The notes under the pieces are model-generated. The model did not search any database and had not been told where the DNA came from. It saw nothing but the letters and a program-made list of their open reading frames with translations. DNA of 61,007 nt, the filler included. It is 7 parts of 7 records of this genome, joined end to end, with 100 filler letters (N's around TTAATTAATTAA, not from the genome) between each part and the next. Parts side by side here need not be neighbours in the genome. Positions count along the whole stretch, not along the records: positions 44,192 to 61,007 come from SRR31156797_24561; 6 more parts are not named here. One strand, 5' to 3'. A program made the translations under genes and the position numbers. Shown piece by piece: positions 2,831 through 61,007 of the stretch (positions are counted from its first letter, which is position 1; each line of letters opens with the position of its first letter).

Positions 2831-2853
2831 CCCAGAGACCGGAAACATAAGAA

Positions 2854-4648: not shown

Positions 4649-4650
4649 AT

Positions 4651-38678: not shown

Positions 38679-38778
38679 NNNNNNNNNNNNNNNNNNNNNN
38701 NNNNNNNNNNNNNNNNNNNNNNTTAATTAATTAANNNNNNNNNNNNNNNNNNNNNNNNNNNNNNNNNNNNNNNNNNNN
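38679..38778. other. Artificial contig spacer 5
   Basis: 100 nt of N containing TTAATTAATTAA. Confidence 0.98.
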
Positions 38779-43793: not shown

Positions 43794-44091
43794 CAAAGTA
43801 CCTCCTAGGTGCTTTTTAACTTCAGAATACAATTCTCAGGGACAGTACATAGTATCAGGGGTCGGATACTTTCAGAATGAGGGATCTTAATATTCATAGT
43901 TTTTACAAGTGACATCTGCAAACCTCAAAACAAGATAGGTAAATACAAGATATAGGAAATTCCTGCTCCTTTCTGTTCTAGTGGAGATAGAGCGAAGGAG
44001 CAATTGAAGGAGGTAGAATTTCCACGAGGTGACTACCCGATATAGACCCATTTTTAATCAAGGTAAATTGTCTACTCTCAAATAACAGTTA

Positions 44092-44191
44092 NNNNNNNNN
44101 NNNNNNNNNNNNNNNNNNNNNNNNNNNNNNNNNNNTTAATTAATTAANNNNNNNNNNNNNNNNNNNNNNNNNNNNNNNNNNNNNNNNNNNN
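44092..44191. other. Artificial contig spacer 6
   Basis: 100 nt of N containing TTAATTAATTAA. Confidence 0.98.
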
Positions 44192-44223
44192 TTTGCTCAC
44201 AATAATCTGAAAGGAGTTTTTAT

Positions 44224-44667
44224 ATGAAAAAAAGCAGCTATCTTATCTATCTGGTCCTCTCGTTGACCAGCCTCAGCGCACTGGTCCTTTTCACAGGAAC
44301 GAGTATGCTGTTCTATATCGATGTCCCCAGCCTGCTGGTGATACTGATCTTCCTCTGCATCCTCACGATCTTCCAGACGGGAGTGAAGCGGACTCTGGGC
44401 TATTACAGATGTGTTTTCGATCCCCGGGCGGACAAGGTCCTGGTCAGAGAAGCGGCGGGATATTTCTCGTCCCTGAGCCTCTATACCATGGCGGTGGGAA
44501 GCGTCGTCTTCTTCACAGGGCTCATAGCGGTCCTGGGCAACCTGGAGGACAGGAGCTCGGTAGGCCCCAATCTGGCGGTGGCCCTGATCACCCTCCTCTA
44601 CGCCGCCATACTCTGCATCCTGATATTCCTGCCCTTTAAGATCGCCCTGGAAAAGAGGTTCGATTAA
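44224..44667 (+). CDS. Short MotA/TolQ/ExbB-like membrane protein
   Basis: AAGGAG RBS; IDVPSLLVI and GLIAVLGNLED..SVGPNLAVALITLLYA resemble MotA TM segments. Confidence 0.65.
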   Translation: MKKSSYLIYLVLSLTSLSALVLFTGTSMLFYIDVPSLLVILIFLCILTIFQTGVKRTLGYYRCVFDPRADKVLVREAAGYFSSLSLYTMAVGSVVFFTGLIAVLGNLEDRSSVGPNLAVALITLLYAAILCILIFLPFKIALEKRFD

Positions 44668-44709
44668 AGATATATTGTTCATTAAAAGGATAACAAGGAT
44701 AGCCCCGCT

Positions 44710-45234
44710 TTGAAGATCAGACACGAATACCTGGACACGCTGCCCGTCCGCAGGATGAAAGGCAGCGAGCTTATGAACCTTCTCTTCGAGATCATCTTCC
44801 TGTTCTTCATAGGGCTGGCCGTGCTGATCGCCCTGGAAGTCCTGCTGATCATGGCGGATTATATGGGGGAAACCGATTCCCTTTTGATCTTCAGGACGGG
44901 TCAGATCGCTATACTCATCCTCCTGATCATCGATCCCATAGCCTTTCGGCCGCGCCTGGGAGATCTGTTCTCCCGCAGGGTGTTGGAATGGAAGGACGCG
45001 GAGATACACGATCTGTACGACCGGAAGCCAAGGCTCGGCCAGATCCCCTGGAGAATGCGCTTGAGCGATCCGACCGGACATTACATCCTCAATCTGGAGA
45101 ACAGATACGAGGTCGGCGTCCGCTACAAAAACTACTGCCGCTTCCAGAAGGGCGACAAGGTCACCCTCGTGGTCGGGGCGAGAAGCAAGTCGGTCATGGC
45201 CGTCTACAACGCTCTCCCGGAGGAAGAGGCATAG
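44710..45234 (+). CDS. Hypothetical membrane protein
   Basis: Two TM segments plus a small beta-rich tail (FQKGDKVTLVVG); AAGGA RBS before TTG. Confidence 0.6.
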   Translation: MKIRHEYLDTLPVRRMKGSELMNLLFEIIFLFFIGLAVLIALEVLLIMADYMGETDSLLIFRTGQIAILILLIIDPIAFRPRLGDLFSRRVLEWKDAEIHDLYDRKPRLGQIPWRMRLSDPTGHYILNLENRYEVGVRYKNYCRFQKGDKVTLVVGARSKSVMAVYNALPEEEA

Positions 45235-45459
45235 CTCCCCAATCCGCTGCCTCTTCAGACAGCTCGGCTCCCGATAAGGCCGGACAGGCCGAAGCCCGTT
45301 CCCCTCGAGTATGGAGAACGGATTCCATGTTTTCCGGAATCCTGCGACTCGTATGGCAAAGAATGCAAAAGGCCAGGATCTTACCCATCCCCGCGCTCAG
45401 CGCTTCCCGACGGAGAATGATACCGGCGCTGTGAAAGACCATTCAATCGGAAACACACA

Positions 45460-46047
45460 TCAACTGTCTTTGCAGGCCATGACCGTAAACCCCTTAAACC
45501 CGTCCTCCACCAGGATCCCGGAAAATCCGTATTCGATAAGCTTCAGATGGAAATAATCACCATCGGGGAGCACATCTCTCCGGACCTCATGCTTCCTGCG
45601 GTGGAGATCATTCAACTCCTCCCGGCTCATTGAATGGGCAATGACCAGCATTCCCCGGTCTTTGAGATAATCCCAGGCGTTGACAAAGGCCTTTTCAAAA
45701 TTGGAGAGATGAGGAAAGGCGTTGAAAATAACGACCTTGTCTTTGCTCGCTCTTTCTCGAACTGGTTCCAGAAAAGACTGACACCGTATCTTCAATCCAG
45801 GAAATTTCTCAGCCAGGATTCCCGTCATTACCGGAGAACTGTCCATAGCCGTTATGTCCCTCACCCCCTTGCTTCTGTAAAAAGGAATCATGATACCCGT
45901 TCCGGAGCCCACATCCAGAACGGCATCGCCTGCGCAAATGGGGATGCGTTTGACAAGCCGCTCTGCAGACTGTGTATCCCGGCGCTGTATCCTTCTATCC
46001 CATGAAGGGGCGATGCGGTCGAAGAACGAAGGGCTTGTCCCGTCCAT
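45460..46047 (-). CDS. Class I SAM-dependent methyltransferase
   Basis: FFDRIAPSWD, VLDVGSGTG motif I, FNAFPH, HSMSREELN..H; TGATG-coupled to the upstream gene. Confidence 0.9.
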   Translation of the reverse strand: MDGTSPSFFDRIAPSWDRRIQRRDTQSAERLVKRIPICAGDAVLDVGSGTGIMIPFYRSKGVRDITAMDSSPVMTGILAEKFPGLKIRCQSFLEPVRERASKDKVVIFNAFPHLSNFEKAFVNAWDYLKDRGMLVIAHSMSREELNDLHRRKHEVRRDVLPDGDYFHLKLIEYGFSGILVEDGFKGFTVMACKDS

Positions 46048-47189
46048 CAGAAAGTGGGCGCCATGCCCGTATACAGGATGTCATGATCCCAGTGGATTCG
46101 GCTGGATACCGCAAGATGGGGGACCGCTCGCAGCAAGACGGATTCATTTTTAATAAATGAACGGCAGAGGGGATCGGCGACCACTGTCTCAGGAGCCAGA
46201 TCCTCCAATAGCCGGGACAGGTGTCTTTCCGATTCGATCATATGATCCCACTCCGTCTTCAGCTTCTTATCCAGTGAGAAAAAGCTAGCCGTATGGACAT
46301 GATGAATTCCCAGGTCCAGCTGGAAGTGGCGGCGCACGCTATCTGCCCATATCTGATCGCCGATGATCAGCACATCGCTCCTGTCCGCTCCGCCTTCGGG
46401 CGTCGGATCATATGGAATGTTCTCATACATCCGGATCTCAGAAGCCAGGCGCGCCGATTGACGTTTGCCAACGGGAACACCCGTCACATAGGGCATCCCG
46501 TGTTTCCGCTTCAGCCAGCGGGCCGCCTTGAGCCCTGAATAGGACACGACCAGATTGACCTCCGCTCCGAGGCTTCGCTTCACAGAAGAGAGATCGTCAT
46601 CCCTTCCCCAGATGCCGTTGATAGCAATACCATGATACGCCAGGGCCTCCCGAATCCCGTCGACCTGCCCGTTGTTCCAGAAATCCATGGCCGAAGCGCC
46701 TATGATATTCACTGCCCCCCGGGGCCCGGAAGCGAAACGATCGGAATCGACAAAGTGCTTCGCCAGCTCAAGATAGGCATTAGCAGCCCCGATCTCGTAT
46801 GTATCGATCCCCGTGGTGTTGATGGTCATGACAGGGATGCTCCTGTCTTTCCGGATGATACTCCCCACACCTTTGTGGTCGCTGGCGATGACAGCAGAGT
46901 TGGGAGTGCCCATGATGGCTATGAAGCTGATATCCAAATCTCCGACGGAGTTTTCAATTTTCTCCTTCAAAGAGTCTTCATCCCCGGTTATAGCTTTCAT
47001 TTCCCGAAGCCCACTGGAATAGATTGGGACTTTATAGTCGAAGAACCGCGGCTCGTCATAGCCTGTGACATTCCCGATGCAGCCGTCCGCGCCATTGATG
47101 ATCAATGCCCCCCCAAGGGTGAACAACACGGAGGAAGCTCCTGAGTAGTCGGGAGCGAGGGGAGGGATTCTTTTCATAAGACCTTTCAT
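46047..47189 (-). CDS. Nitrogenase component-1-like subunit (NifK/BchB-like)
   Basis: PDYSGA, GADGC, SSGLRE..AITGDED, NTTG...Y..G, VNIIG, NLVVS..G..AA..L....GMPY, DVLIIGDQ. Confidence 0.85.
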   Translation of the reverse strand: MKGLMKRIPPLAPDYSGASSVLFTLGGALIINGADGCIGNVTGYDEPRFFDYKVPIYSSGLREMKAITGDEDSLKEKIENSVGDLDISFIAIMGTPNSAVIASDHKGVGSIIRKDRSIPVMTINTTGIDTYEIGAANAYLELAKHFVDSDRFASGPRGAVNIIGASAMDFWNNGQVDGIREALAYHGIAINGIWGRDDDLSSVKRSLGAEVNLVVSYSGLKAARWLKRKHGMPYVTGVPVGKRQSARLASEIRMYENIPYDPTPEGGADRSDVLIIGDQIWADSVRRHFQLDLGIHHVHTASFFSLDKKLKTEWDHMIESERHLSRLLEDLAPETVVADPLCRSFIKNESVLLRAVPHLAVSSRIHWDHDILYTGMAPTF

Positions 47190-47197
47190 ATCATCTC

Positions 47198-48520
47198 CTA
47201 CAGAACCAGATTTTGTGAATACACATGCTCTTTGAGAGTTTTCGTGAATTCGTCGGCATTGAGGATTTTCTCTATCAGTTTTTTAGTCCCCCTGAAGCCG
47301 AAGAGGTTCTCATCCTCCGAGATTTCTATCAGACGCCCCAGTTTGAAATAAGCGGGAGTATCCAGACCGAATCCATAATCGACCTCGTCAAGGTAACCTT
47401 TTACGCAAGAAAGGCTGGGCTCGACGCTGGGTATGATCCTCATCCGAGGCGCGTGCTCCGCCAGCCAGGGGAGATGACATCGCTCGAAAGGTTTCACGAA
47501 TCCCGCCGTCAGATATTTGACCGTCATTCCCATTTCGGAAAGGAACCGAGCCAGCTCGAATGCCGCTCCCTGCAGGGCCGTCCCGATAACAGCTGTTTTC
47601 CCATTCAGATCCGCCCGAACGCTTTCAAGATATGAACTGAGTTCCTCCTCATAGGCCGCATATTCCAAGGGCCTTCCCAGATAATCTTCGAGGATCCGAT
47701 AATTTTCACGGATTCCTTCCGGGCGGAAAACGCTGAAGACTCCGGCGAAGCTTTGCCCCTGCTCTCTCTCCAGCGCCTCCGCGGCCCTCAGACCGGGCAG
47801 GCCGATCAACAGATTCCCGGAAGCGGAAGCCATGGCCTTATGGTCTTCAAAGGTTTCGAAACCGGCGATATGCTGTAAAGGCTTCAGACCCGCTTCTTTC
47901 AGAACAATGTGAATTTCCGAGTCAGAATCCAGAGGGCAAGGCGTTCCCAGAGTGTTGTAAAGCCCTTCGACGGGTCTTTCCTTGTCCAGAAAATCATGCA
48001 TGGTTTTATAGATCATCATCTGAGGGGGCTTCCTGGAAAGGGACATAAGGGGATTCATTCTTCCTCTTCTTATGGGGATGCCGTGCTTCTCTTCCAGCTT
48101 TTCGAAAACCGCATCGTAATCGGAACCCAACAGGTCGTCTATGCAGGTTGTGAACAGCATGATGCCCTTAGGGCGCTCTCCTTCGATGAGCTCTTCCAGC
48201 GCTTCTTCGGTTTTGGCGAGATGCCCGCCCGTCACGATATCCACTTCGGCTATGGGAAGGTAGGAAAGGCTCCCTTCCAGCCCCTCTTTCATACAGGCGA
48301 TTCCTCCGTGGCGTCCGCAGCCCATGGGGATCACAAATACGACGGCGACCTGAGGGACCTGGAACGCCATCTTAACCATACCCCAATGCCCTGCTCCGGG
48401 AGGACAGTAATGGGGAAGGGTCTCCCTGTTGATACGGTATTTCCTGGGTTTGATCTCTTCCTCAAGATCCCCGATGGCGATGGTGCGGAGGGTATCGGTT
48501 CTGGTATCGCTTAAGGTCAA
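47198..48520 (-). CDS. Nitrogenase component-1-like subunit (NifD/BchN-like)
   Basis: PMGCGRH, EVDIVTG, TTCIDDLLGSD, LNGKTAVIG, ELARFLSEMGM, FGFRG. Confidence 0.88.
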   Translation of the reverse strand: MTLSDTRTDTLRTIAIGDLEEEIKPRKYRINRETLPHYCPPGAGHWGMVKMAFQVPQVAVVFVIPMGCGRHGGIACMKEGLEGSLSYLPIAEVDIVTGGHLAKTEEALEELIEGERPKGIMLFTTCIDDLLGSDYDAVFEKLEEKHGIPIRRGRMNPLMSLSRKPPQMMIYKTMHDFLDKERPVEGLYNTLGTPCPLDSDSEIHIVLKEAGLKPLQHIAGFETFEDHKAMASASGNLLIGLPGLRAAEALEREQGQSFAGVFSVFRPEGIRENYRILEDYLGRPLEYAAYEEELSSYLESVRADLNGKTAVIGTALQGAAFELARFLSEMGMTVKYLTAGFVKPFERCHLPWLAEHAPRMRIIPSVEPSLSCVKGYLDEVDYGFGLDTPAYFKLGRLIEISEDENLFGFRGTKKLIEKILNADEFTKTLKEHVYSQNLVL

Positions 48521-49272
48521 AAGGTCCCTCCTTCTATGATCCTCCGGGCGATCGAAAGGAAATTTCGAGAAATGGGTAGGAGGGGATCGCCTTCGATCAC
48601 GGTCTGGTTCCTGTTTTCATAGACCTGGATATTCCCATCGCGCTCGACCGTTCCGATCAGATCCGCTCCGCAGCTGTCGACGAACGCCCCTACGATGGCT
48701 TCCTCATTCTCAATATTCCTCTTGTTGTGAATGACCCCGAGAAGCTCGACGCCGTTCCGTTCGCTGAATGTATCCACGGCCATGCGGATATTGCCGGCGG
48801 CGAACAGAGCCATCTTTTCTCCCGAAGTGACTATGATGACCTCATCGGCATACCCGTTTCTCATGGGCATGGCAAAACCGCCGCATACCACATCTCCCAG
48901 AACATCGTAGAAAACGAAATCAGGTTCATACACATCGAAGGCTTCCAGCTCATCCAGCAACTCAAAGGTTGTGACGATGCCCCGGCCGGCGCATCCTACG
49001 CCGGGGGTCGGCCCCCCGGCTTCGAAGCAGACGACTCCCCCGTAGCCGATATTCGCGATATCCTCCAGATCATCACAGTTTCCGTTTTCGTCCAGATACC
49101 GGATAACCGAGACGGTCTCACGTCCTCCTGTGAGATTCAATGTGGAATCAGCTTTGGGATCGCAACCGATCTGCATGACCTTATACCCTTCAGAGGCGAT
49201 GGCCGCCGACAAAGAGCTGGTGACAGTCGATTTGCCTATCCCTCCTTTACCGTATACTGCGATTTTTCTCAT
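48517..49272 (-). CDS. NifH/BchL/CfbC-family Fe protein (nitrogenase-like reductase)
   Basis: YGKGGIGKST, GCDPKADST, GGPTPGVGC(94)AGRG, DVLGDVVC(130)GGFAMP. Confidence 0.95.
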   Translation of the reverse strand: MRKIAVYGKGGIGKSTVTSSLSAAIASEGYKVMQIGCDPKADSTLNLTGGRETVSVIRYLDENGNCDDLEDIANIGYGGVVCFEAGGPTPGVGCAGRGIVTTFELLDELEAFDVYEPDFVFYDVLGDVVCGGFAMPMRNGYADEVIIVTSGEKMALFAAGNIRMAVDTFSERNGVELLGVIHNKRNIENEEAIVGAFVDSCGADLIGTVERDGNIQVYENRNQTVIEGDPLLPISRNFLSIARRIIEGGTF

Positions 49273-49301
49273 GGAAGACTCCCGTACTTAGAATGCCACC
49301 A

Positions 49302-49330
49302 ATGTTAATCTTAGCTAACTTTGTTGTCAA
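49302..49330 (-). promoter_or_regulatory. Sigma70-type promoter of the nitrogenase-like operon, overlapped by an operator
   Basis: Minus strand TTGACA (49330-49325), 17 nt, TAACAT (49307-49302); overlaps GTTAATCTTAGCTAAC (49304-49319). Confidence 0.7.
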
Positions 49331-49358
49331 TATCTTTCATTATTACGCTAGACTAATA

Positions 49359-49416
49359 TTGACAGATCCCTTTCTTTCTCCCTAGAATCCCAGAGAGGAT
49401 GTTAATATCAATTAAC
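49359..49416 (+). promoter_or_regulatory. Sigma70-type promoter of the ABC operon with downstream palindromic operator
   Basis: TTGACA (49359-49364), 18 nt, TAGAAT (49383-49388); GTTAAT-ATCA-ATTAAC at 49401-49416. Confidence 0.7.
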
Positions 49417-49446
49417 TATCAGCGGTTCTCTCAGTATTGGACATAT

Positions 49447-50430
49447 ATGATTTACCTTAAAACGACTCTTCAATACATTTTGGTTCTGGCCATTATCCTT
49501 ATAATTAACTTCGCCCTTCCGAGAATCGCCCCCGGCGATCCCGCGATTTACCTCGTGGGCGACGATATTCAATTCATGACAGAGCAGCAGAGGCTTGAAG
49601 TCCTCAGAGAATTCAAGCTTGACATCCCCATCCCTGAGCAGTTCGCCAATTATATCAAAGGAATTTTCAGGAAGGACCTGGGCCTGTCCATCATATACGG
49701 CCGCCCGGTCTGGGAGGTCCTGAAATCGCGCCTGCCCTGGACCTTGCTCATCATGAGCCTCTCGTTGGTAAGCAGCGCGGCCTTAGGGATTCTCATAGGG
49801 GTATTCGGAGCCTGGAAGAGAGGAGGAGGCGGTGATATGGGCTCTCTTATCACTGTCATGACCTTGAGCTCCATCCCCCCTTTCTGGATCGCCATGCTGC
49901 TGATAACTCTTTTCTCGGCCACCCTGAACTGGCTGCCCTCCTTCGGAGCCTACGCCATTGCCGCCGTTCCCGGCACCTGGGCCTTTGTCGCCAGCGTATT
50001 GGAAAGAGCCGTTCTGCCCGTTCTCACTCTCACTCTGGTCAAAACGGGAGCCATGTTTCTTACCACGCGCTCATCCATGGTGATCGCCATGGAAGAGGAT
50101 TACGTGATGCTGGCCCATGCGAAGGGACTGAAAGAGTCCACTGTGATTTTCGCTCATGCCCTCAGGAACGCCATGCTCCCCATCTATTCCAACGTCATGA
50201 TGGGCTTGGGCGCCATGATAGGCGGAACGGCGGTCATAGAGACGGTCTTTTCCTACCCCGGACTGGGAAACACGATTTACGAAAGCGTGACCGCCCGGGA
50301 TTATTGCCTTCTGCAAGGCAGCTTTCTCGTCGTATCCATAAGCGTCCTTTTCTTCAATTTCATAGCGGATCTGGGATATCCGCTTCTCGATCCGAGAGTA
50401 AGAAGAAGCGCGGAAGGGAGGATACTATGA
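49447..50430 (+). CDS. Nickel/peptide ABC permease (NikB/DppB-like)
   Basis: PGDPA, DLGLS, RLPWTL, DYVMLAHAKGL...HALRNAMLP, IETVFSYPGLG. Confidence 0.92.
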   Translation: MIYLKTTLQYILVLAIILIINFALPRIAPGDPAIYLVGDDIQFMTEQQRLEVLREFKLDIPIPEQFANYIKGIFRKDLGLSIIYGRPVWEVLKSRLPWTLLIMSLSLVSSAALGILIGVFGAWKRGGGGDMGSLITVMTLSSIPPFWIAMLLITLFSATLNWLPSFGAYAIAAVPGTWAFVASVLERAVLPVLTLTLVKTGAMFLTTRSSMVIAMEEDYVMLAHAKGLKESTVIFAHALRNAMLPIYSNVMMGLGAMIGGTAVIETVFSYPGLGNTIYESVTARDYCLLQGSFLVVSISVLFFNFIADLGYPLLDPRVRRSAEGRIL

Positions 50431-52955
50431 AGTTTCTGGACTTTTCCGAGCCTGAGAGCAGATTCAGAAGCATAGGATTGCTGATACTGATGCTGTTCTT
50501 CATACTCAGCGTTTTCGCAGCAGTTCTCTCCCCTTACGATCCCTATCAACGTACCGGACTTCCTTTTGAGAGGCCGAGCCTCGAACACCCCCTGGGATGT
50601 AACGACGTAGGCCACGATTTGTTTTCCGAACTCCTTTACGGCGGGCGCATATCCCTGTTCATCGGCCTGTTCGCCTCTCTGTATTCCACTCTGGCGGCCA
50701 CAGTGCTGGCCCTGATATCAGGTTACTTCGGAGGCAGGACGGACCGCCTCATCATGAGATGCGTGGATGTGGTCATGTCTCTCCCTTTCCTGCCGCTGGT
50801 CATTGTCCTGGGGGTCTTCCTGGGACCGGGCATAAGCACTCAGATCATCGTCATCACCACGGTCATGTGGGCATCCCCCTGCCGTGAGCTCAGATCACAG
50901 GTCATGAAGATTCGAAGCAGCGGCTATGTGGATGCGTCAAAAGCCATGGGGGGGAGTTCGGGCAGAATCATTTTCAGACATGTTCTTCCCGAACTGATGC
51001 CCCTGATCGTCCCCCAGTTTGTCAGGGTTGTGCAGTCTGCCATCATGATCGAATCGTCCCTCAGTTTCCTGGGGCTGGGCGATCCGGTGTTGAAAAGCTG
51101 GGGCTCCATCCTGTTTTTCGCCAACACCAGGGCCGCTTTCCTGACAGGCGCCTGGATCAATTGGGTTCTGCCGCCGGGATTGTGCATAACACTGACGGTT
51201 CTGGGCTTTTCCCTGGTGGGTTTTTCCCTGAATGGTAAAACGGGTTTGGTATATCACAGCTTCGGCTCATACGCATTAAAGAGAGGGAGCAAGCCCCTGA
51301 TCCCCCCCGACGGCAGCGCCCGTCTGTCCCTGAGAGAGCTGTCCACGGCCTACAGCCCCGGAAAAAATGAGTTCCTGGCCGTTAACGGCGTCTCCCTGGA
51401 TATAGCTCCCGGAGAAATGCTTGGCCTGGTAGGCGAATCGGGCTGCGGTAAATCCACCATAGCCATGTCCATCCTGGGGCTGCTCAGGCATCCGACAGAA
51501 ATCCGCAGCGGCTGCATATGCCTGGACAGTGACGACCTTCTGGATCTGAAGGGACCGGAGATCGTAGCGCTTCGCGGAAAGCGGATGGCCTATATCCCGC
51601 AGAACGCCATGAACGCACTGAATCCGGTAATCACTGTGGAAGGCCAGTTGGCAGAGGCCGTCAAAGGTCCCCGGTATTCCGGCAGAGAAGAGAAATCCGC
51701 GAGGATTCGGGAGGTCCTGGAGCTGGTGGATATCCCCTTAGACCGGGCAGCTGCCTACAGCCACGAACTCTCCGGCGGGATGAAGCAGCGTATAGTCATC
51801 GCCATGGCCATAATCAACAATCCGGATTTCCTGATCGCCGACGAGCCGACGACGGGACTGGACGTGCTTGTGCAGGACGAGATCGTCCATCTCCTGATAC
51901 GCCTGAAGGAAAGGATGGGAATCAGCATACTGTTCATCACCCACGACCTCCCTTTGGTCATGAATCATGCGGATAAGCTGGCGGTCATGTACCAGGGCCG
52001 GATAGTAGACAGGGGAACACCCGAATCGGTCTACAATGATCCCACCCACGATCATACGAAAGAGCTCTTCAGAAACTTTCCCCGGCTTTTCGAAGAGAAA
52101 AGATGGAATCGTTTGGTTCCCGGCCATTCCTCCGAGCGGGCTCTTACCCTTTCCCATGTCAATAAGACCTTCCACAGCAAACGGGGGCTCCTGAGTAAAC
52201 ATCTTCCCCCCGTCCCAGCGGTGAGGGATGTCAGCTTATCCGTTATGCCCGGCGAAGTAGTCGGACTGATAGGCGGCAGCGGTTCAGGAAAATCAACGAT
52301 AGCCAGAATGATTCTGGGACTGGAAAGCATAGACTCCGGCCGGATAAGCATCGCCGGCCGGAATGCATCTGCCGGCAGCGCCTGGGAGCGGCAGCAGTTG
52401 AGACGGCAGATACACCTCGTGTTTCAGGATCCCTACGGCTCCATGAGAAACCACATGAAGATCGCTGACATTGTCGCCGAGCCCCTGCAGATCCAGGGGA
52501 TTTCAGATAAAGGCGAAAGGGAGCGCCTCGTCGCCGAAGCCCTGAGGGAAGTGAATCTGCCGCAGGACGCCGCCTTTGTGTCCAGAACTCCCGATGAGTT
52601 GTCGGGGGGGCAAAGGCAAAGGCTGTCCTTCGCCAGAGCGATTGCGGCCAAACCACGATTCATCATCGCCGACGAGCCGACCTCCATGCTGGACGTATCC
52701 CTGCGCTGCGGGCTTTTGGAGCTTATGGAGAAGCTGAGGGTTGATTACGGTGTCGGATTCCTTTTCATTACACACGACCTGTCGCTGGCCCGCCATTTCT
52801 GTGACAGGATCCTTGTCCTCAACCGGGGGAGCCTCCTCGAAGAAGGGGACTCGGACAGTGTCATATTCACACCGAGACATGACTATACCTTCCGCTTGAT
52901 CCATGCAGCAAAGGAGCCGGAACTGATGCGTCGTCCGGTGATTATGACTGTATGA
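50427..52955 (+). CDS. Fused ABC permease (NikC/DppC-like) plus two ATPase domains
   Basis: [47 protein letters not shown] and [22 protein letters not shown] in one frame; GGAGG RBS and ATGA overlap. Confidence 0.92.
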
Positions 52956-54736
52956 GACTGCCCGCTGGATGCTTCGGATTCCTGGCGTTTCTGTTTCTTA
53001 CGGCGCCCTTGCCGTCTGTCCGGGCCCACGTAATAGATGACATAGCTTTCAACAGCGCTATTTCCTTAAATGAAGATGATATATCCCTTTGCCTGACGGT
53101 CTACGCAGGGATGATGTTCGGCGGCTTTTATCTGGAGATGTTGGATGGGGACAAAAACAGCGTTACAGACGGAGAGGAAACGGCGGTGTTTTCCGAATAC
53201 GTTCTGAACCGCATCAGGCTGAGAATCAACGGCGAAGCCGTATCCCCCGTTTTAACAAAACATGAGGTTTCATCCGTACAGGAATTCATGACGGGCCTGG
53301 GAACGATCAGGATGGTATACAGGGCAGCCTACCCCAAAGGCAGCGACTCCCTCATCAGCCTTTACTATGAAAACTGCCTCGAACCGGAGGCGGCGATCTA
53401 CTCGCTTTCCGTATCGAGATCGGACGACGCCCCCTACGAAATCATCAGGGAGGAGAGAAACGAAGTCCTTCAGGATCTTGTGGAGCTTGACCTGGCTCCC
53501 CCGGGGACACGGATGCTTCCGCCATCCGGAATCACGGAAAACCTGCCGGCGGCAAAGCCGAATCCATCGCCGGGGAAGCCGCCCCTTGCAGAGCCTGCCT
53601 TACAGGAGACCATAACTGAGCAGTCGGGAACTGTGCCGGGGGCGCAGCGCCTGGTATCGCTTTTGAAGTCAGGAGACTTCAGCGTCCTCATCCTGCTCGC
53701 GCTGGCTGTGGGAGTAGGCTTTCTCCACGCCTTTGCACCGGGGCACGGCAAATCCCTGGTAGGAGCCTATCTGGTCGCCAATGAAGGAACTCTCATTCAA
53801 GCTGCGGGATTGGGGCTGGTGGTCACCATGACCCATACCCTGAGCATATACATTCTGGGATTGCTTTCTTCTGCTGCGGCCTACGTATTCATGCCCTCGG
53901 AAATCATCCCGGCGGCCTCTGTCTTCTCGGGGGTCCTGATCATCGCCATAGCGCTCTGGAACGGTGTATCCAGATTCTTGGGGCTGCAAACGGATCACGC
54001 CCATATCCTTCCGAATCTGAGAATACTGAAAAGCAATGGGGTGAATATCATCTTAGACGGCAGCGCCGCCGACGCTGCGGATTTCCTGGTCCTGGAGTCG
54101 GAAGGGGAAGCGTTCCGCGAGATGATGGACGCCGCCGGGGCCGAAGGAATCAACATATGTTCTCCGGGATGCGAAACCCACAGGTACACCCCGCGGATCC
54201 TGGCCGAAAGGCAGAGCTTCCAGCTGATGAAACTGGCCATGGAGACAGGCGCCGTCGAAGCGGTGGTCAGCAAAAGAAAAAGTATCAGGACGGGTTTGGA
54301 GCGGATAAAGAACTCAGGCCCCGTACGCATCGAAAAGGATCTCCGGAACTCGGATGAGGCCGCGGCCCTCCTGAAAAGCGCCCTCCGCAATTACTGCCGG
54401 AGAGGAGAAGTGAGGATTCCCGAAAAGGACAGGCTGTCCTGGCAAAGGATCGTCCCGCTGGGAATTGCCGGAGGCATGGTCCCCTGTCCCGACGCTTTGG
54501 CCGTTCTTATCATAAGCATGTCGATGGGGCGGCTGTTTCTGGGCATGCAGATCGTCCTGGCCTTTTCGACTGGCCTTGCGGTCGCGTTGATGCTCATAGG
54601 CTCGACGGTGGTTCTGACAGGCAGGGCGGTATCGGGAGCGAGGCGTTTCCCATCCCTATCCCGGGCTTTGCCCTGGCTTTCGACGATCTTCCTGATCGGA
54701 CTGGGGACGCTGTTGATACTGACGAACATAAGCTGA
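52952..54736 (+). CDS. RcnA/NiCoT-family Ni/Co transporter-like protein with N-terminal exported domain and internal insert
   Basis: Signal peptide ending VRA-H; GFLHAFAPGHGKS, THT, GMVPCPDAL, FSTGLA motifs. Confidence 0.85.
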   Translation: MRLPAGCFGFLAFLFLTAPLPSVRAHVIDDIAFNSAISLNEDDISLCLTVYAGMMFGGFYLEMLDGDKNSVTDGEETAVFSEYVLNRIRLRINGEAVSPVLTKHEVSSVQEFMTGLGTIRMVYRAAYPKGSDSLISLYYENCLEPEAAIYSLSVSRSDDAPYEIIREERNEVLQDLVELDLAPPGTRMLPPSGITENLPAAKPNPSPGKPPLAEPALQETITEQSGTVPGAQRLVSLLKSGDFSVLILLALAVGVGFLHAFAPGHGKSLVGAYLVANEGTLIQAAGLGLVVTMTHTLSIYILGLLSSAAAYVFMPSEIIPAASVFSGVLIIAIALWNGVSRFLGLQTDHAHILPNLRILKSNGVNIILDGSAADAADFLVLESEGEAFREMMDAAGAEGINICSPGCETHRYTPRILAERQSFQLMKLAMETGAVEAVVSKRKSIRTGLERIKNSGPVRIEKDLRNSDEAAALLKSALRNYCRRGEVRIPEKDRLSWQRIVPLGIAGGMVPCPDALAVLIISMSMGRLFLGMQIVLAFSTGLAVALMLIGSTVVLTGRAVSGARRFPSLSRALPWLSTIFLIGLGTLLILTNIS

Positions 54737-54813
54737 CGGAGCTCTCCGTCCGCAGGCTCGGAAGAATGGATCCCGGGCCCTGATCTTACGTAAAGAATTC
54801 TGGAGGAAATGCG

Positions 54814-55584
54814 ATGAAGAAAATAGCGGTTTGCGGCAAAGGGGGAGTAGGCAAAACGACCTTCTCCTCACTGCTGGTTCACGCTCTGGCTGAAGAGGGC
54901 GGCACGGTCTATGCGATAGACGCCGATCCCAATCCCACGCTGGCGGAGGCCCTGGGCCTGCCCCCTGAAACGGTTGAGGACATCACCCCTATCATCGATA
55001 TGAAAGAGTTGATTGAAGAAAGGACGGGAGCGAAAGACGGCGAGTACGGGAGCTACTTCAAAATGAATCCCCGGGTCAGGGACATCCCCGCCGGATACTC
55101 TGTCAGAAAGGACAACATCAGCTACCTTCAGATGGGCTGTATGAAAGGGGCGGACAAAGGCTGCGCCTGCGCCCAGAACACCCTGCTCCGCGCCCTGGTG
55201 ACCCACCTGATGGTCAAGGAAAAGGAAACAGTCGTCATGGATATGGTCGCCGGTACCGAGCACATGGGACGGGGCACGGCGAAGTCCGTGGACGCCATGA
55301 TCATAGTGGTGGAGCCCGGAGCCCGCAGCATCAAAGCGGCAAAAGAGTTCGCGCGGATGGCTAAGGATCTGGGGATAAGGAAGATCTTCGCCGTGGGGAA
55401 CAAGGTCTGCGGCGCGGAGGACGAAAGCTACATCGCCGGAAAGATGGAGGGTTTCGATATCCTGGGCTTTCTTCCCCATACACCCGATGCGGTTAAGGCC
55501 GAAAGAAGCGGAGCGGTCCTTTACGAGTCGGCGCCCCATATGAAGGAAAAGGTCATGTCCATAGTGAAGAACCTTTGCCGGTAA
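54814..55584 (+). CDS. cooC: CooC/AcsF-type nickel-insertion ATPase
   Basis: GKGGVGKTT, DADPN, GCAC (CxC Ni site), DMVAGTEHMGRG, GNK. Confidence 0.9.
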   Translation: MKKIAVCGKGGVGKTTFSSLLVHALAEEGGTVYAIDADPNPTLAEALGLPPETVEDITPIIDMKELIEERTGAKDGEYGSYFKMNPRVRDIPAGYSVRKDNISYLQMGCMKGADKGCACAQNTLLRALVTHLMVKEKETVVMDMVAGTEHMGRGTAKSVDAMIIVVEPGARSIKAAKEFARMAKDLGIRKIFAVGNKVCGAEDESYIAGKMEGFDILGFLPHTPDAVKAERSGAVLYESAPHMKEKVMSIVKNLCR

Positions 55585-55651
55585 AACTGCACAATTTCGC
55601 TTCCTCCCATCCGGAATCTCCGACGGGACGGAGCGGTATAAGGAGAATTCA

Positions 55652-57319
55652 ATGAAAAGGTTTCTAGGCGCAGCATTCTTGCTGCTGACAATCACGGCCC
55701 TCCCCGCATTCGCAGGGGGAAGCCAGGAAGAACCGACGGAGTCCGTTAAGGGCCCGCAGAGAGCCGACAAGCTGACCCTGGGCATTTACAATGATGCCGG
55801 TAATGTAACGATCTGGGGCGGAGGGGCGTACAGTCCCTGGGTTCTCGACTCGGTCTGCGAGAGGCTGACGGGCCCCAATCCCTACGGCGACGAACTGGAA
55901 ATGGTTCTTGCCGAGTACGTCAAGCCGGTATCGGAGGACAACAGGGTGTGGGAAATCAAGCTCAAGGAAGGCATACTCTGGCATGACGGCACCCCCCTGA
56001 CCTCGGAAGACGTGAAGTTCACAATCGACTACAACAGGGAAGGCCCCTCCAACAACCGGTATTCCCACCATACCAGCGCCGTCCCCCGGCTCCCGGGCGA
56101 AGGGATCACCATCGTCGACGAGCTGACCCTGAGGGTCACCGGCGCTTTCCCCATGCCCTATTTCGATAGAGAACCTTGCGCCGAACTGCCCATCGTCCAG
56201 AAAGCTCAATGGGAAGGCGTCACAGATCCCCGCCAGTTCACCGGAAAATCCATCGGTACCGGCCCCTACAGACTGACTGATTACAAGGTGGGAGAATACT
56301 ATAAGCTTGAAGCCAATGAGAGCTATCACATGGGCGAGCCTCTGGTGGGCGAACTCAATCTGGTCGTCATCAAAGACATGTCCACCATGTTCACGGCTCT
56401 TAAAAGCGGCGAGATCGACGGAGCCGCCAGAACCGTACCGGTAGAGCTGGTGTCGGAATGGAAAAACAACAAAGACATGGGTATTATCGAAGTCCCCTAT
56501 ATGTGGAGCGCATGCATCACCCTCGATACTAAGAATCAGCCCTTCGCAAATCTGGATGTCCGCCAGGCGATCAGCCACACCATCAACAGGAACGAACTTC
56601 TGGAAATCGTCGCCCTGGGCAATGGGATAAGCGCCACATGCGGATACCCCCATCCCGCGGCTTTTCATACCAACCCCGAAAACTCCCAGCCTTATGACCC
56701 CGCCAAGGCGAAAGCGATGTTCGATGAAATGGGCTACGTCGATATCAACGGCGACGGATTCAGAGAGAATCCCGACGGCACCCCCCTGAACTGGAGGATC
56801 ATCGCCGAGACCAGTCAGCCTTTGTATGTAAGGGCCGGCGAAATCGTAGTGGAGCATTTCGAAGAAATCGGTATAAAAGCCCACGTCCAGGCTCTGGAGA
56901 AAGCGGCCTTTTCCGAGCTTTTATGGAAGAAGGGAAACTACAACATGTCCATTGGGGAATTCGTACCTCACGGCGTAGCCGACGACGATATGATGATGGT
57001 CCTCCAGTACGGTGAAAAAAAGACTGACCTGGTGCCCTATCCGGAACGGGATGCCGCCTTGGAAGCATGGAAAAAGGCGGGGACGAAAGAAACCAGGCTT
57101 CAGGCTTCCTATGATCTGCAGGAACTCATCAACAAACATCCCAAAAGGGTCATGCTCTGGTACCCTAACGGCTTCTTCGCTTACAACAAGACCGTCTACG
57201 ACAACTACTCCATCGTCAAAGGTTACAATATCTTCAACAAGTATTCCTTCATCCCCAACGAAGCCCGGAAAGGCTTCGTCCTGGAAGACTATCCCCAGGA
57301 CGGACTGGACAGGATGTAA
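55652..57319 (+). CDS. Family-5 ABC substrate-binding protein (nickel/peptide/metallophore)
   Basis: Spirochaete-style leader AFAGGSQE; WHDGTPLTSEDVKFT, GTGPY, VRQAI, YDPAKAK, DGFRE. Confidence 0.92.
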   Translation: MKRFLGAAFLLLTITALPAFAGGSQEEPTESVKGPQRADKLTLGIYNDAGNVTIWGGGAYSPWVLDSVCERLTGPNPYGDELEMVLAEYVKPVSEDNRVWEIKLKEGILWHDGTPLTSEDVKFTIDYNREGPSNNRYSHHTSAVPRLPGEGITIVDELTLRVTGAFPMPYFDREPCAELPIVQKAQWEGVTDPRQFTGKSIGTGPYRLTDYKVGEYYKLEANESYHMGEPLVGELNLVVIKDMSTMFTALKSGEIDGAARTVPVELVSEWKNNKDMGIIEVPYMWSACITLDTKNQPFANLDVRQAISHTINRNELLEIVALGNGISATCGYPHPAAFHTNPENSQPYDPAKAKAMFDEMGYVDINGDGFRENPDGTPLNWRIIAETSQPLYVRAGEIVVEHFEEIGIKAHVQALEKAAFSELLWKKGNYNMSIGEFVPHGVADDDMMMVLQYGEKKTDLVPYPERDAALEAWKKAGTKETRLQASYDLQELINKHPKRVMLWYPNGFFAYNKTVYDNYSIVKGYNIFNKYSFIPNEARKGFVLEDYPQDGLDRM

Positions 57320-57332
57320 TCGCTAAAGCGTC

Positions 57333-57360
57333 TGGCCGGCCGGATTAATTCGGCCGGTCG
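57333..57360 (+). other. GC-rich stem-loop after the binding-protein gene
   Basis: TGGCCGGCCGGA-TTAA-TTCGGCCGGTCG; no T-tail, so possibly an mRNA stabiliser. Confidence 0.45.
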
Positions 57361-57383
57361 TATGCATCCCGCCGGAGATCCGA

Positions 57384-57659
57384 ATGAAAGCGGATAATTA
57401 TTCAATGGAGAGGAAGGTAATGAGAATAGGCGTCATGGGCATAGCCATCAGAAGGGAAGAAGTCATCCAACAGGTCAACAGGATCATTTCAGAAAACAGC
57501 AGCATCGTCATCGGAAGGATGGGTCTCCCCGTGTCGGAAAGCAATGTGAACATGATATCCCTGGTCATCAGAGGAGACACCGACAGGATCGGCAGCATGG
57601 CCGGTAAAATCGGATTGCTCAGAGGGGTGCAGATTAAATCCATGCTAATGAAAGAGTAA
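57384..57659 (+). CDS. TM1266-family ACT-like protein (iron-only hydrogenase system regulator family)
   Basis: RIGVMGI, VNRIISE, IGRMGLP, ISLVI.G, GKIG.L.GV.IKS; start may be a later Met. Confidence 0.8.
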   Translation: MKADNYSMERKVMRIGVMGIAIRREEVIQQVNRIISENSSIVIGRMGLPVSESNVNMISLVIRGDTDRIGSMAGKIGLLRGVQIKSMLMKE

Positions 57660-57758
57660 CTTCCATGCGTATAGGGACATAGCTTATTCCGCAGCGTGAG
57701 CGAATGGCAACGGAGTCGGTTATGATTTCCCAAAAACCGTCTTTATTCGCATCAGTCT

Positions 57759-58847
57759 TCATATGGAGTGTTGTTTCCTCATATCCCTCACAGACCGTCT
57801 CTTCATCAGCCGGGGCTCGATCACCGTGTTCGACCTGATCCCCAGATCGGGATTCCGGATCTGCTCGATGATCAGCTTGGCGGCCAGATGGCCGATATAG
57901 GCTCCCGGATGCTCGAAGGAGCTCAGCGAGATCTGATCCATCCGGGCCATCTCGGAGTTGTCAAAGGCGATGACCGACAGATCATCGGGAACCCGGATCC
58001 CCATTTCGGAGGCGATGCGGATAAGCGTCAGAGCCTCTTCATCGTTGGTGCATATGACGGCGCTCGGCCGGGTTTGCCCTTCGAAGACACGGGGAGCCAT
58101 CTCGCCGGCCGTGCTTCTCTCCCCCTGTCCCTTAATGCCCACCATAGGGACTTCCCCGGGAGAGATCCCCATCTCTTTCAAAAAGGCGAGGGCCCCCTCT
58201 TTCCGCCTGACCTTGGTCAGATAATCGATCTGATAGAAGATGCTGATGTCCCTGTGTCCCAGTTCCCAGAGGTATTTCGCCGCCTCGTAACCGGCGCGAT
58301 GATCATCCATCCTTATGGAGCTGAAGGGATGGGAAGGGTACTCATTGTCCAGGAGGAAGATAGGCATGCCCTCTTCTTTCATGGACATAAGAAGGTCGAT
58401 GTTCGATTCCCCGGAACCTGAGTACACAGGCTCGATAATGATGCCGTCCACCCTCTTCTCCCTCAGGACCTGGAGGACCTCCCGTTCGCGGCTCAGGTCA
58501 TACTCAGATTGGTTGAGCATCAACTGGAACCCCTCCCGGTAGAGGACCTGATCGCAGCCCTTGATGATTCTGGGAAAGATATACGAGTCGCTGAAGAAAC
58601 AGACAAAGCCGATGTTCCGGCTCTCTTCGGGATTGACCGATTTTCTCCGGCAAAACGTTCCGATCCCCTTCTGGCTCTCCGTTATCCCCTCCCGGCCGAG
58701 GAGATCGATCGCCTGCCTCACCGCATTGCGGGAAACACCGAACTGGCGGGTCAGTTCGCTTTCCGAAGGGATCTTGTCTCCGGGATGGATATTGCCGCTG
58801 CTGATTTCGTCACGTACCCATTGGGCGACCACTTCATATTTTTTCAT
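57759..58847 (-). CDS. araR: AraR-type repressor (GntR HTH plus LacI-type sugar-binding domain)
   Basis: [48 protein letters not shown]; divergent from araA. Confidence 0.85.
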
Positions 58848-58955
58848 ATAGGTACAACTTGTTCCTTTTTTTGGACTCATTTCATTATATTTCAATCTTT
58901 TTTGCTGTCAATAGCGCTTTTCTGTTTGACTAAAAGGACAAGCTATACCTACAAT
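58846..58955. promoter_or_regulatory. Divergent araR/araA promoters with two AraR-like operators
   Basis: Minus TTGACA(58911-58906)-16-TATAAT(58889-58884); plus TTGACT(58926-58931)-18-TACAAT(58950-58955); sites AGTTGTACCTATAT (minus, 58859-58846) and AGCTATACCTACAAT (58941-58955) resemble the Bacillus AraR box TTGTACGTACAA. Confidence 0.7.
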
Positions 58956-58997
58956 ATCAGCAATAAAAGAATATGCTGTACCATAAAGAGGTTGATA

Positions 58998-60485: not shown

Positions 60486-60486
60486 G

Positions 60487-61007
60487 ATGAGCAAGTACAG
60501 GGAGCTGAAAGAGAGGGTTCTCCGGGCGAACCTCAGATTGGTCGAAGAGGGGCTTGTGGTCCTGACCTGGGGCAATGTGAGTCAGGCCGACAGGGAAAAG
60601 GGCGTATACGCCATCAAGCCCAGCGGCGTGTCCTACGACGCCATGGAGGCGGAGGATATGGTCGTTCTTTCCCTGGATACGGGAGAGCTTGTTGAGGGGA
60701 ATCTGAATCCTTCCTCGGATACCCCGACCCACCACGTGCTCTACAAGGCCTTCTCCGGGGTGGGCGGCATCGTCCATACCCATTCGGAGAATGCGGTGTG
60801 CTGGGCCCAGGCCTGCAGGCCCATCCCCTGCATGGGGACCACCCATGCGGATACCTTTTACGGCGCCGTTCCCCTGACAAGGGAGCTTACGGAACGGGAG
60901 GTAGAAGACGCCTACGAGGAGAACAGCGGCAGGGTCATCGTGGAATACTTCCGGGAGAGGGGGCTCGATCCCCTCTTCAATCCGGGGGTCCTGCTTCCCT
61001 TTCACGG
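60487..61007 (+). CDS. araD: L-ribulose-5-phosphate 4-epimerase (3' truncated; absent from the ORF track)
   Basis: Manual translation MSKYRELKERV...LTWGNVS...IKPSGV...PSSDTPTH...HTHS...GTTHADTFYG. Confidence 0.95.
   Translation, partial: MSKYRELKERVLRANLRLVEEGLVVLTWGNVSQADREKGVYAIKPSGVSYDAMEAEDMVVLSLDTGELVEGNLNPSSDTPTHHVLYKAFSGVGGIVHTHSENAVCWAQACRPIPCMGTTHADTFYGAVPLTRELTEREVEDAYEENSGRVIVEYFRERGLDPLFNPGVLLPFH

Follow-up and report, generated by a model that had tools for sequence, protein, structure and literature searches.

Assigning functions to uncharacterised nitrogenase-like (NFL) systems is counted among the greatest challenges of the field in a 2026 review (PMC13474568), according to which genome context has been of little help so far beyond links to sulfur and tetrapyrrole genes. 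Within Group IV, the functions verified or proposed are those of Nfa, CfbCD, MAR and ISR only (PMC13474568; PMC13753814); Groups IV-A, IV-D, IV-E and IV-F are nflBHDK clusters beside sulfur genes (PMC13474568; PMC13753814), and Group VI, the Elusimicrobia type, is a NifH clade of its own next to Group V with many radical S-adenosylmethionine (SAM) neighbours (bioRxiv 10.1101/765248). NifH and NifEN-like genes beside ATP-binding cassette (ABC) transporters were sighted in 2012 in clostridia/Firmicutes and in Methanocorpusculum (Dos Santos et al., PMC3464626). These sources and the others cited by accession are represented here by excerpts; in those of PMC13474568, PMC13753814 and bioRxiv 10.1101/765248, an importer-linked clade goes unmentioned. 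The subject of this report is a ten-gene locus of a spirochaete-like bacterium, in a DNA stretch of 61,007 nucleotides (the window), made of seven parts of seven records joined end to end, in which positions 44,192 to 61,007 come from record SRR31156797_24561. Here an operon for a predicted NFL reductase, comprising an Fe protein (H), two subunits (D and K) and a methyltransferase, stands back to back with an operon of nickel-import type, designated the nickel module.

The H-D-K proteins are best regarded as a rare, deep NFL clade of their own among the references compared, and their genes essentially always adjoin those of a chelate-type importer. In two distant subclades the neighbour is the same nickel module. 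Our preferred reading, held tentatively and with some doubt, is that an ATP-driven reductase would act on an imported, very stable nickel (or cobalt) chelate, from which the metal would be freed and passed on.

Placement of H, D and K among nitrogenase relatives

Cut-offs quoted here are those of the curated models (Pfam gathering scores; NCBIfam cut-offs). By these, H is an Fe protein (PF00142), with a P-loop (GKGGIGKS) and two cysteines, Cys94 (GCAGRG) and Cys130 (VVCGGF), which we take to be the counterparts of the NifH cluster ligands Cys97 and Cys132; D and K both belong to PF00148 (cut-off 28.6; scores in Table 1). On models of the characterised enzymes, H scores 296.5 bits for nifH (cut-off 394) and 286.7 for CfbC (402), below both, and 189 for BchL (345) and 157 for BchX. 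The best curated model for D is NifE, at 42 bits against 505, with nifD at 18.1 against 653.55 and BchN at 19.6 against 420; that for K is BchB, at 58.1 against 490. The CfbD model (methan_mark_13) matches K only, at 17.4 bits against 268.4, leaving D unmatched. The best matches to PDB chains have E-values of 3e-7 for D (NifE and an unnamed alpha chain) and 2e-4 for K (BchB). AlphaFold2 models of D (pLDDT 87.3) and K (pLDDT 85.5) match Nif, NifEN, Bch and Mar chains at E 1e-14 to 1e-18. The closest fold to the K model is BchB of DPOR (TM-score 0.77-0.80). For the D model, Foldseek puts MarD on top by a marginal lead, and MarD, NifD/K, NifEN and BchB score alike (TM-score 0.56-0.67).

A search of 5.8 billion proteins for relatives of D gave only 33 at E<=1e-3. 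A pattern scan with one genome per species gave 86 confirmed H-D-K loci, and the family counts below use the best 80 of these 86; L and G numbers are our labels for loci and genomes. In the family alignments D-Cys68 and D-Cys126 are invariant (76 of 76 sequences), D-His71 occurs in 73 of 76, and D-Cys39 in 31 of 76, including the window and the termite-gut group. In K, Cys37 is invariant in all 73 sequences and no second or third cysteine is conserved. Because of this pattern of D-Cys68, D-Cys126 and K-Cys37, the predicted D/K protein fits one that carries, in place of a P-cluster, a single [4Fe-4S] cluster between the subunits, as in DPOR and COR.

A FastTree phylogeny of 172 sequences set D and K beside reference proteins: NifD/K/E/N of three genomes, the Rhodoplanes proteins BchN/B/Y/Z and three further NFL pairs. 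All 76 D sequences group together, as do all 73 K sequences; both clades have a local support of 100, stand on stems of about 1.4 changes per site and are separate from every one of these reference groups. The supports are local SH-like values in a tree with long branches, to which MarD, IsrD, NfaD, CfbD and Group VI sequences did not contribute. An earlier reading of the DNA alone (the preliminary description) had matched the gene set to none of the characterised enzymes (DPOR/COR, CfbCD, MarHDK and IsrHDK); for the clades compared, both the tree, in which neither D nor K nests within Nif D/E/K/N or Bch N/B/Y/Z, and the scores below the curated cut-offs agree with this. A termite-gut Treponema contig (L046, 15309-17187, minus strand) has, roughly 6 kb away from its first set, another H together with another D/K-like gene, with a D that takes a long branch near NifD/E.

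Three established identities were considered and rejected. True nitrogenase fails on the nifD score, far below cut-off, on the one conserved cysteine of K and on the absence of nifB, nifE and nifN from the open reading frames (ORFs) scanned. DPOR/COR fails on the BchB, BchN and BchL scores, on its separation from the Rhodoplanes Bch proteins in the tree and on the absence of bch/chl genes. CfbCD fails on the CfbC score, on a CfbD-model match confined to K and on the conservation of both D and K. The scan took in the ten cluster genes, ten flanking ORFs and 20 of the 29 ORFs of at least 200 residues in 1-36500, the remaining nine mostly overlapping scanned ORFs. Over this range it found none of the nif, bch, cfb, Ni-CO dehydrogenase (CODH) or hydrogenase families and, among window ORFs scanned, no radical SAM or NifB-like gene; the lack of nifB/E/N, bch/chl, cfbA/B/E, CODH and hydrogenase genes stated in the preliminary description holds to that extent.

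Importers beside H-D-K across the clade

The neighbours of the 80 loci were clustered and the recurrent families annotated. An ABC importer adjoins H-D-K in 71 loci: 62 have only the type made of Peripla_BP_2, FecCD and ATPase (Fec type), three have that type together with an Opp/Nik type, and six have the Opp/Nik type only. In all nine loci lacking one, the sequence stops within 585 nt on one side or both. The near-constant presence of a chelate-type importer is in keeping with an enzyme whose substrate is a metal chelate brought in from outside. The FecCD permease has its closest likeness in BtuC. TonB-dependent receptors occur in five loci, four proteobacterial and one of Acidobacteriota (L013), and the one tested, from L018, is nearest to receptors for haem/haemoglobin (242 bits, short of the cut-off, 317). 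About a dozen loci have SAM methyltransferases, which belong to three unrelated families, and a regulator of the Crp/Fnr family lies upstream in 13. None of the recurrent families annotated is a sulfur-assimilation gene. Cobalamin riboswitches were found at gathering score in none of the 29 loci searched, and no riboswitch of any kind appeared at E<=1 in 43000-59000 of the window.

Characterised NFL enzymes with non-tetrapyrrole substrates, MAR and ISR, are salvage enzymes beside ABC importers (PMC13474568; PMC11423573), and H-D-K might work in the same manner: the Opp/Nik-type importer would bring a peptide, an opine or a sulfur compound, H-D-K would break a bond such as C-S, with the nickel genes as bystanders. 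Family-5 binding proteins such as the one in the window often take peptides or opines, and MarD does lead for D in Foldseek, if marginally. By sequence, however, D reaches the MAR entry 9fmg_A only at E 4.5e-4, the scanned ORFs hold no NifB/MarB/IsrB-type radical SAM gene, and K conserves one cysteine, not three. The recurrent neighbour families annotated include no sulfur-assimilation gene, as noted, and MAR activity is reported as absent outside Group IV-C in the excerpt of PMC13753814. We consider salvage of this kind very doubtful.

Several loci have features of separate interest. In a metagenome-assembled genome of Desulfosporosinus (L076), a Moco/tungsten riboswitch (7971-8103, minus strand; 65 bits, gathering score 36) precedes an O-methyltransferase-FecCD-ATPase-binding-protein operon that adjoins the NFL genes, a hint that molybdenum or tungsten plays a part in that lineage. 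Two or three small proteins of about 180-210 residues, conserved and matching no Pfam or NCBIfam model, adjoin the NFL or importer genes in L017 (7277-9076), L018 (1344-3330), L027 (1543-3302) and L064 (2803-4024), which comprise proteobacterial loci and one of Bacillota. A group II intron (D1-D4 and D5-6 with a 554-residue ORF between) lies upstream of the Chloroflexota locus L010, at 2727-4962.

Recurrence of the nickel module beside H-D-K

The nickel module of the window comprises NikB, a NikC-NikD-NikE fusion, a NicO-type permease, a CooC-type ATPase and a family-5 binding protein. It is found again divergently upstream of H in Breznakiella homolactica (L045), L051 and L061, and in L047 and L033 the contig stops within it. 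Identity to the window is 65-72% for NikB, 56-58% for the fusion, 38-46% for the permease, 58-63% for CooC and 69-71% for the binding protein; NikB is 65-77% identical to the gene in the same position in L045, L047, L051, L061, L033, L130, L133 and L213. A metagenome scan starting from the module gave two further strong matches. One (L133) has the layout of the window, with an H-D-K set of the window's own subclade (H 83%, D 66% identical); the other (L134) is cut inside the fusion gene, so that adjacency to H-D-K cannot be judged. The full-length permease is present in two of 401 sampled Spirochaetota genomes, both times beside H-D-K. Overall it occurs in eight places, and H-D-K is the divergent neighbour in six of them: the window, L045, L051, L061, L130 and L133. 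In genome G002, the source of L001, the module lies on the same contig as H-D-K, 13.5 kb from H.

The D of the window pairs with that of L001 (68% identity), then with those of L003, L002 and L004. In both the D and the K tree a long distance separates the window group from the termite-gut group, and lineages with Fec-type importers lie in between. Between the two groups D is only 28-30% identical, against 58-72% for NikB, NikC-D-E, CooC and the binding protein. Some members of the termite subclade, moreover, have a Fec-type importer at the same divergent position. For these reasons the pairing of the module with H-D-K was formed or kept more than once, which we take as strong evidence for a functional tie. 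The linkage asserted in the preliminary description holds at six of eight permease places, the window included, and in two distant H-D-K subclades. That two unrelated operons merely happen to share an intergenic region is scarcely credible. Divergent operons are common, and the two units in G002 are well separated, but the same adjacency is seen in six of the seven places where it can be judged, in both subclades, and the permease is otherwise rare, as the two carriers among 401 genomes attest.

The module proteins match families that include those of nickel transport and maturation. The best NCBIfam model for NikB is the Opp2B nickel ABC permease (244.6 bits, cut-off 350), with the curated nikB model at 180 bits against 447; the binding protein scores 112.9 against 393 on nikA. 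The fusion protein scores 367.6 bits on nikD (cut-off 318.7) and 364.4 on nikE (332.55), both of its ATPase domains adding to each score. The best solved relative of the binding protein is 4oet (E 3.8e-29), which we take to be a nickel-binding protein of Campylobacter. The gene called RcnA/NiCoT-like in the preliminary description does belong to the NicO family, staying below cut-off on the RcnA-type model PRK10019 (95.4 bits against 195); what that label passed over is that this 594-residue permease has a periplasmic N-terminal domain and a cytoplasmic loop at residues ~354-455 (nt 54011-54316) resembling CODH. Searched alone against the PDB, the loop finds only Ni-CO dehydrogenases (33 of 33 matches at E<=10, best 8e-8), and it aligns to CODH residues ~241-343, a stretch that presumably bears C-cluster ligands. 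Its HAH, CSPGC and H motifs are invariant in five of five homologues. An ESM Atlas search with the periplasmic domain returned unnamed clusters only.

The gene that follows the permease is, by its match to the CooC1 structure (3kje) and its CxC motif, a true CooC relative; the assignment comes from these two features, no curated CooC model being among the profile matches. Its CxC (Cys117-Ala-Cys119) aligns to that of CooC1 and is invariant in seven of seven homologues. The CODH-like loop of the permease is a plausible docking or metal-relay site for CooC, and the two adjoining genes may constitute a new type of chaperone-coupled nickel permease; a predicted complex of two CooC copies with the loop scored 0.00, which speaks neither for nor against binding.

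The TM1266-family protein that ends the operon is small and ACT/NikR-C-like (NikR_C 18.9 bits, below the cut-off of 22), possibly a ligand-sensing regulator; by tblastn its gene is absent from the other nickel-module loci and occurs in the window only. NCBIfam matches of the methyltransferase are all far below cut-off, BioC and CpaM being best at ~35 bits. Among 82 sources (the 80 loci, L130 and the window) its orthologue was found in L001 only, at 47% identity, and it was not found in L133.

The module might instead serve the enzyme or the cell at large: the cargo of H-D-K would then be haem, a ferric siderophore or a corrinoid, and the module would supply a heterometal to D/K by way of CooC, or would simply be a co-regulated general nickel uptake unit. 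The 62 loci with Fec/Btu-type importers only would suit such a cargo, as would the haem-receptor-like TonB protein of L018 and the BtuC-like permeases; the CODH-like loop together with CooC recalls C-cluster maturation, and a heterometal in NFL enzymes is posed as an open question (PMC13474568). On the other side stand the lack of a cobalamin riboswitch in the window and in the 29 loci searched, the near-restriction of the permease to places beside H-D-K, which is odd for a general uptake unit, and the close relatives in the termite clade that work without the module, which argues against an obligatory nickel cluster. We judge this alternative unlikely, if the least so among the rivals.

Further links to nickel or cobalt occur in other loci. 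The Fec-type operon of L001 extends through overlapping genes for a TrmO_N-FmdE fusion, for LarC (208 bits against a cut-off of 90) and for LarE-like (PP-loop) and LarB-like (AIR-carboxylase-like) proteins. In L047, CbiM-PDGLE and CbiQ follow K, and L010 and L044 have heavy-metal-type P-type ATPases. The contig that unites L001 and L213 in G002 (C37) forms a "nickel island" of about 25 kb, in the order methyltransferase-K-D-H, DeoR-type regulator, Fec-type importer, TrmO_N-FmdE, LarC, LarE-like, LarB-like, sugar ABC genes, full nickel module and a second SAM methyltransferase.

A shared promoter region with a recurrent palindrome

Over 44200-58600, the sigma-70-like sites that score highest are two that face outward, in divergent orientation, within the 126-bp gap between H and NikB. 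The plus-strand site is TTGACA-18-TAGAAT at 49359-49388 (11 of 12 positions), the minus-strand site TTGACA-17-TAACAT at 49330-49302 (10 of 12). Overlapping the H promoter, at 49304-49319, lies GTTAGCTAAGATTAAC, one mismatch from the palindrome GTTAG-N6-CTAAC. Exact copies of the palindrome number 24 in the 18.7 kb lying within 250 nt upstream of H genes and 13 in the other 1,135 kb, an enrichment of about 110-fold. With up to one mismatch, 36 of the 72 usable loci have it, ranging from Lachnospiraceae to treponemes (for example at 9129-9144 and 9163-9178 in L028); no copy lies upstream of H in L001-L004. The termite-gut loci have two or three copies, spread across the intergenic region that both operons share. 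The 5-4-5 geometry (TTAGN-N4-NCTAA) would suit a Crp/Fnr-family protein, and the regulator of this family that 13 loci have upstream probably uses the palindrome as its operator. Because the promoter region is shared and divergent, and because palindrome copies span that intergenic region, the two operons are probably under one control. The preliminary description had linked the two operons, and the single promoter region with its family-recurrent, operator-like palindrome strengthens that link. An extended motif, TTGTTGTCAATA, in the intergenic regions was set aside as probably just the -35 hexamer with its flanks.

Contigs of one metatranscriptome library (X4) match, at 95-100% identity, the H/D junction, the NikC-D-E gene and the 3' end of the permease with 22 nt past its stop. 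They touch parts of both operons in 8 of 30 bins, are uninformative on transcript, strand and co-regulation, and give a weak hint that the cluster is expressed.

Proposed functions: metal release or cofactor building

On the proposed mechanism, H would be the ATP-dependent, low-potential electron donor to a cytoplasmic D/K heteromer with one inter-subunit [4Fe-4S] cluster and neither P-cluster nor FeMo-co. The adjoining ABC importer would deliver a metal chelate to H-D-K; in the present organism the cargo would be a nickel, possibly cobalt, complex, most likely a macrocycle or another chelate of great stability. The metal would come free once the ligand had been reduced and, in this case, methylated; the CooC-type ATPase and the NicO-type permease would then handle it, and it would pass to nickel enzymes such as those of the LarA type or CODH. 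Of the ATP-dependent reductase of an imported metal chelate put forward in the preliminary description, the importer, the linkage to the nickel module and the separate clade stand on their own evidence; the reaction, the substrate and the metal we infer from gene context, as we also infer the role of the methyltransferase and any contact between CooC and the permease.

Genomes that carry the system are partly in keeping with such a flow of metal. LarA-type genes are present in four of five related genomes and CODH above cut-off in two, with [NiFe]-hydrogenase in none of the five. HemB is present in two and was not found in G001, G002 and G008, so that any tetrapyrrole substrate in those three would have to be imported.

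Several observations weigh against metal release from a nickel chelate. Gene context alone cannot separate it from the building of a cofactor, and to spend ATP on a reductase of nitrogenase type merely to free a metal would be expensive and, to our knowledge, without precedent. G008 has the NFL system and none of the three nickel enzymes searched for (LarA-type, CODH and [NiFe]-hydrogenase). Most members of the family have a Fec-type importer with no nickel gene nearby, and the 10-kb flanks of the 80 loci hold LarC once, CbiM once and the nickel module in five complete and two truncated loci; the riboswitch of L076 points to yet another metal, and the family as a whole may handle iron, cobalt or other cargo. 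The methyltransferase and the TM1266 protein are not conserved parts of the system, and RNA contigs from one library cannot show co-regulation.

Cofactor building would take another course: a macrocycle or precursor would be imported, the Nik, NicO and CooC proteins would insert nickel, H-D-K would reduce the nickel complex as CfbCD does, and the methyltransferase would finish a nickel cofactor new to bacteria. The NFL enzymes characterised as having [4Fe-4S] clusters (DPOR, COR and CfbCD) are all biosynthetic tetrapyrrole reductases (PMC13474568), and H scores nearly equally on the CfbC and nifH models. CooC belongs to a known family of nickel-insertion ATPases, SAM methyltransferases recur in the loci, and both L045 and G002 have a Fec-type importer as well as the nickel module around H-D-K, as if there were two inputs. 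The window and L133, however, have no Fec-type importer within their available sequence, the scanned ORFs of the window include nothing like cfbA/B/E, the methyltransferase is not conserved, and a client enzyme for such a cofactor is neither known nor seen in any locus. We regard this as unlikely.

A more specific proposal, which seems to us quite improbable, is that nickel is stripped from an environmental nickel macrocycle (for example F430, or nickel tetrapyrroles shed by methanogens) by ATP-driven ring reduction, as a salvage counterpart of CfbCD, and travels through a C-cluster-mimicking permease loop to CooC and then to LarC- or CODH-type clients; or else that the D/K cluster is itself a Ni-Fe-S centre matured by CooC, which, if true, would make it the first heterometal NFL enzyme outside nitrogenase.

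If release of metal from an imported chelate is the function, the functions known for nitrogenase relatives would come to include metal acquisition, the permease would represent a new, chaperone-linked kind of nickel permease, and some of the "pseudo-nifH" signal of metagenomes from gut and sediment (PMC8597730) would be accounted for. The clade offers an unusually clear context, with a chelate-type importer and, in this lineage, a complete nickel-handling set, and a cultured, fully sequenced carrier exists in Breznakiella homolactica RmG30 (L045).

Layout of the locus and its carrier

Each of the ten genes in Table 1 falls in the family given for it in the preliminary description. Its tightly coupled minus-strand operon, back to back with a plus-strand Nik-type operon, is likewise as described: H and D overlap by 4 nt, D and K are 8 nt apart, and K and the methyltransferase overlap by 1 nt, with 126 bp between H and NikB. 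The open frame of the NikC-D-E gene extends from 50304; the likeliest start is the ATG at 50427, overlapping the NikB stop, and the protein that results falls within the range of its homologues (832-859 residues).

Table 1. Features of the H-D-K and nickel-module locus, in positions of the window
Feature	Position	Strand	Evidence
SAM methyltransferase (class I), 195 aa	45460-46047	-	Methyltransf_11, 40 bits; Methyltransf_25/23 also
NflK-like subunit, 380 aa	46047-47189	-	PF00148, 106.8 bits
NflD-like subunit, 440 aa	47198-48520	-	PF00148, 92.5 bits
NflH Fe protein, 251 aa	48517-49272	-	PF00142, 286 bits
Divergent promoter region, 126 bp, with operator-like palindrome	49273-49398	.	between H and NikB
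NikB/Opp2B-type ABC permease, 343 aa	49399-50430	+	BPD_transp_1
NikC permease fused to NikD-/NikE-like ATPase domains, 842 aa	50427-52955	+	BPD_transp_1 + two ABC_tran stretches
NicO/RcnA-family permease, 594 aa	52952-54736	+	PF03824, 31.2 bits (cut-off 27.7)
CooC-family P-loop ATPase, 256 aa	54814-55584	+	E 9.1e-46 to CooC1 (3kje)
Family-5 extracytoplasmic binding protein, 555 aa	55652-57319	+	SBP_bac_5, 240.8 bits
TM1266-family protein, 91 aa	57384-57659	+	TIGR03959, 85.7 bits (cut-off 60.8)

Unrelated genes had been said to bound the cluster on both sides. On the right this is so, with a GntR/LacI-type regulator, araA and an araD-like aldolase contiguous with the cluster; on the left a 294-residue gene of no named family (44197-45081), for which an ESM Atlas search returned unnamed clusters only, is the sole gene certainly contiguous. 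An N run at 44092-44191 separates the cluster from hydantoinase genes, and contiguity with these is uncertain. The window has six such paired N runs (44 N, 12 letters, 44 N), at 12570-12669, 18678-18777, 26299-26398, 32685-32784, 38679-38778 and 44092-44191, spaced ~6-7.6 kb apart; gene order across them is uncertain, and 44192-61007 is free of them. GC content gives no island signature, at 0.51-0.58 in the cluster, 0.46-0.49 to the left and 0.52-0.61 to the right. Elsewhere in the window a VgrG-like gene (Phage_GPD + Phage_base_V; 36589-38730, plus strand) is followed, just past an N run, by a truncated M18 aminopeptidase fragment (38806-39330).

The locus is also present in an independent DNA run (X2), in which four overlapping contigs of ~99% identity cover 44200-59000. 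Near-identical DNA is found in runs labelled coral metagenome, in full in X2 and in small parts in X5, and parts of the same stretch also occur in a microbial-mat metatranscriptome. These sources make a marine carrier probable, in contrast to the termite guts where relatives of its nickel module occur.

Comparison with known systems

DPOR and COR (Group V) share with H-D-K the three-protein architecture and, as predicted for D/K, a single inter-subunit [4Fe-4S] cluster with mixed ligation and independence of NifB, and DPOR BchB supplies the fold closest to K. They differ in that the present H is nearer to NifH/CfbC (296/287 bits) than to BchL/BchX (189/157), that K has 380 residues where native BchB chains in the PDB have 511-536, and that the locus is linked to an importer, without bch/chl genes, and does not lie in a biosynthetic cluster. 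CfbCD is another NFL enzyme, with [4Fe-4S] clusters only; its substrate is a nickel tetrapyrrole, and H scores 286.7 bits on the CfbC model, below the cut-off of 402. CfbD, however, works without a K subunit (PMC11423573), whereas D and K are distinct here and both conserved; cfbA/B/E are missing from the ORFs scanned, and the carriers are mostly bacteria.

MAR and ISR (Groups IV-C and IV-F) resemble the proposed system in that they, too, are NFL enzymes with ABC importers close by, used to obtain a nutrient from a compound taken up. Both depend on a radical SAM partner of NifB type, and MAR has P- and L-type clusters (PMC13474568); the scanned ORFs here contain no radical SAM gene, and K has one conserved cysteine. 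Group VI is described with many radical SAM neighbours; the window ORFs scanned have none, and H scores nearer to NifH/CfbC than to BchL.

The set of Dos Santos et al. (PMC3464626) is the nearest in kind. It too combines NifH with two PF00148 subunits, co-located ABC transporters and no FeMo-co ligands, and conserves cysteines in the D/E-like subunit and few in the K/N-like one. The present clade almost certainly belongs to the same broad family, a likeness drawn from the published description; as the preliminary description held, the novelty is functional and not necessarily a first sighting. As excerpted, the 2012 set comes without an assigned function, a nickel module, a CODH-loop permease, CooC, a LarCEB link or a common operator. 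In the open-access papers and bioRxiv preprints searched, no function is assigned to the clade and no link to a Nik/CooC/NicO module is made; as far as that literature shows, what is new is the variant with a nickel module and its recurrence with two H-D-K subclades, the connection to LarCEB, the permease loop resembling CODH and the family-wide operator.

The nickel module itself compares with systems made of NikABCDE, RcnA/NicO and CooC. The permease, ATPase and binding-protein families are the same, and the CxC of CooC is conserved. The present module differs in having NikC, NikD and NikE fused, in lacking a CODH or hydrogenase client within the cluster, in a permease with a large periplasmic domain and a CODH-like loop, and in being bound to an NFL operon.

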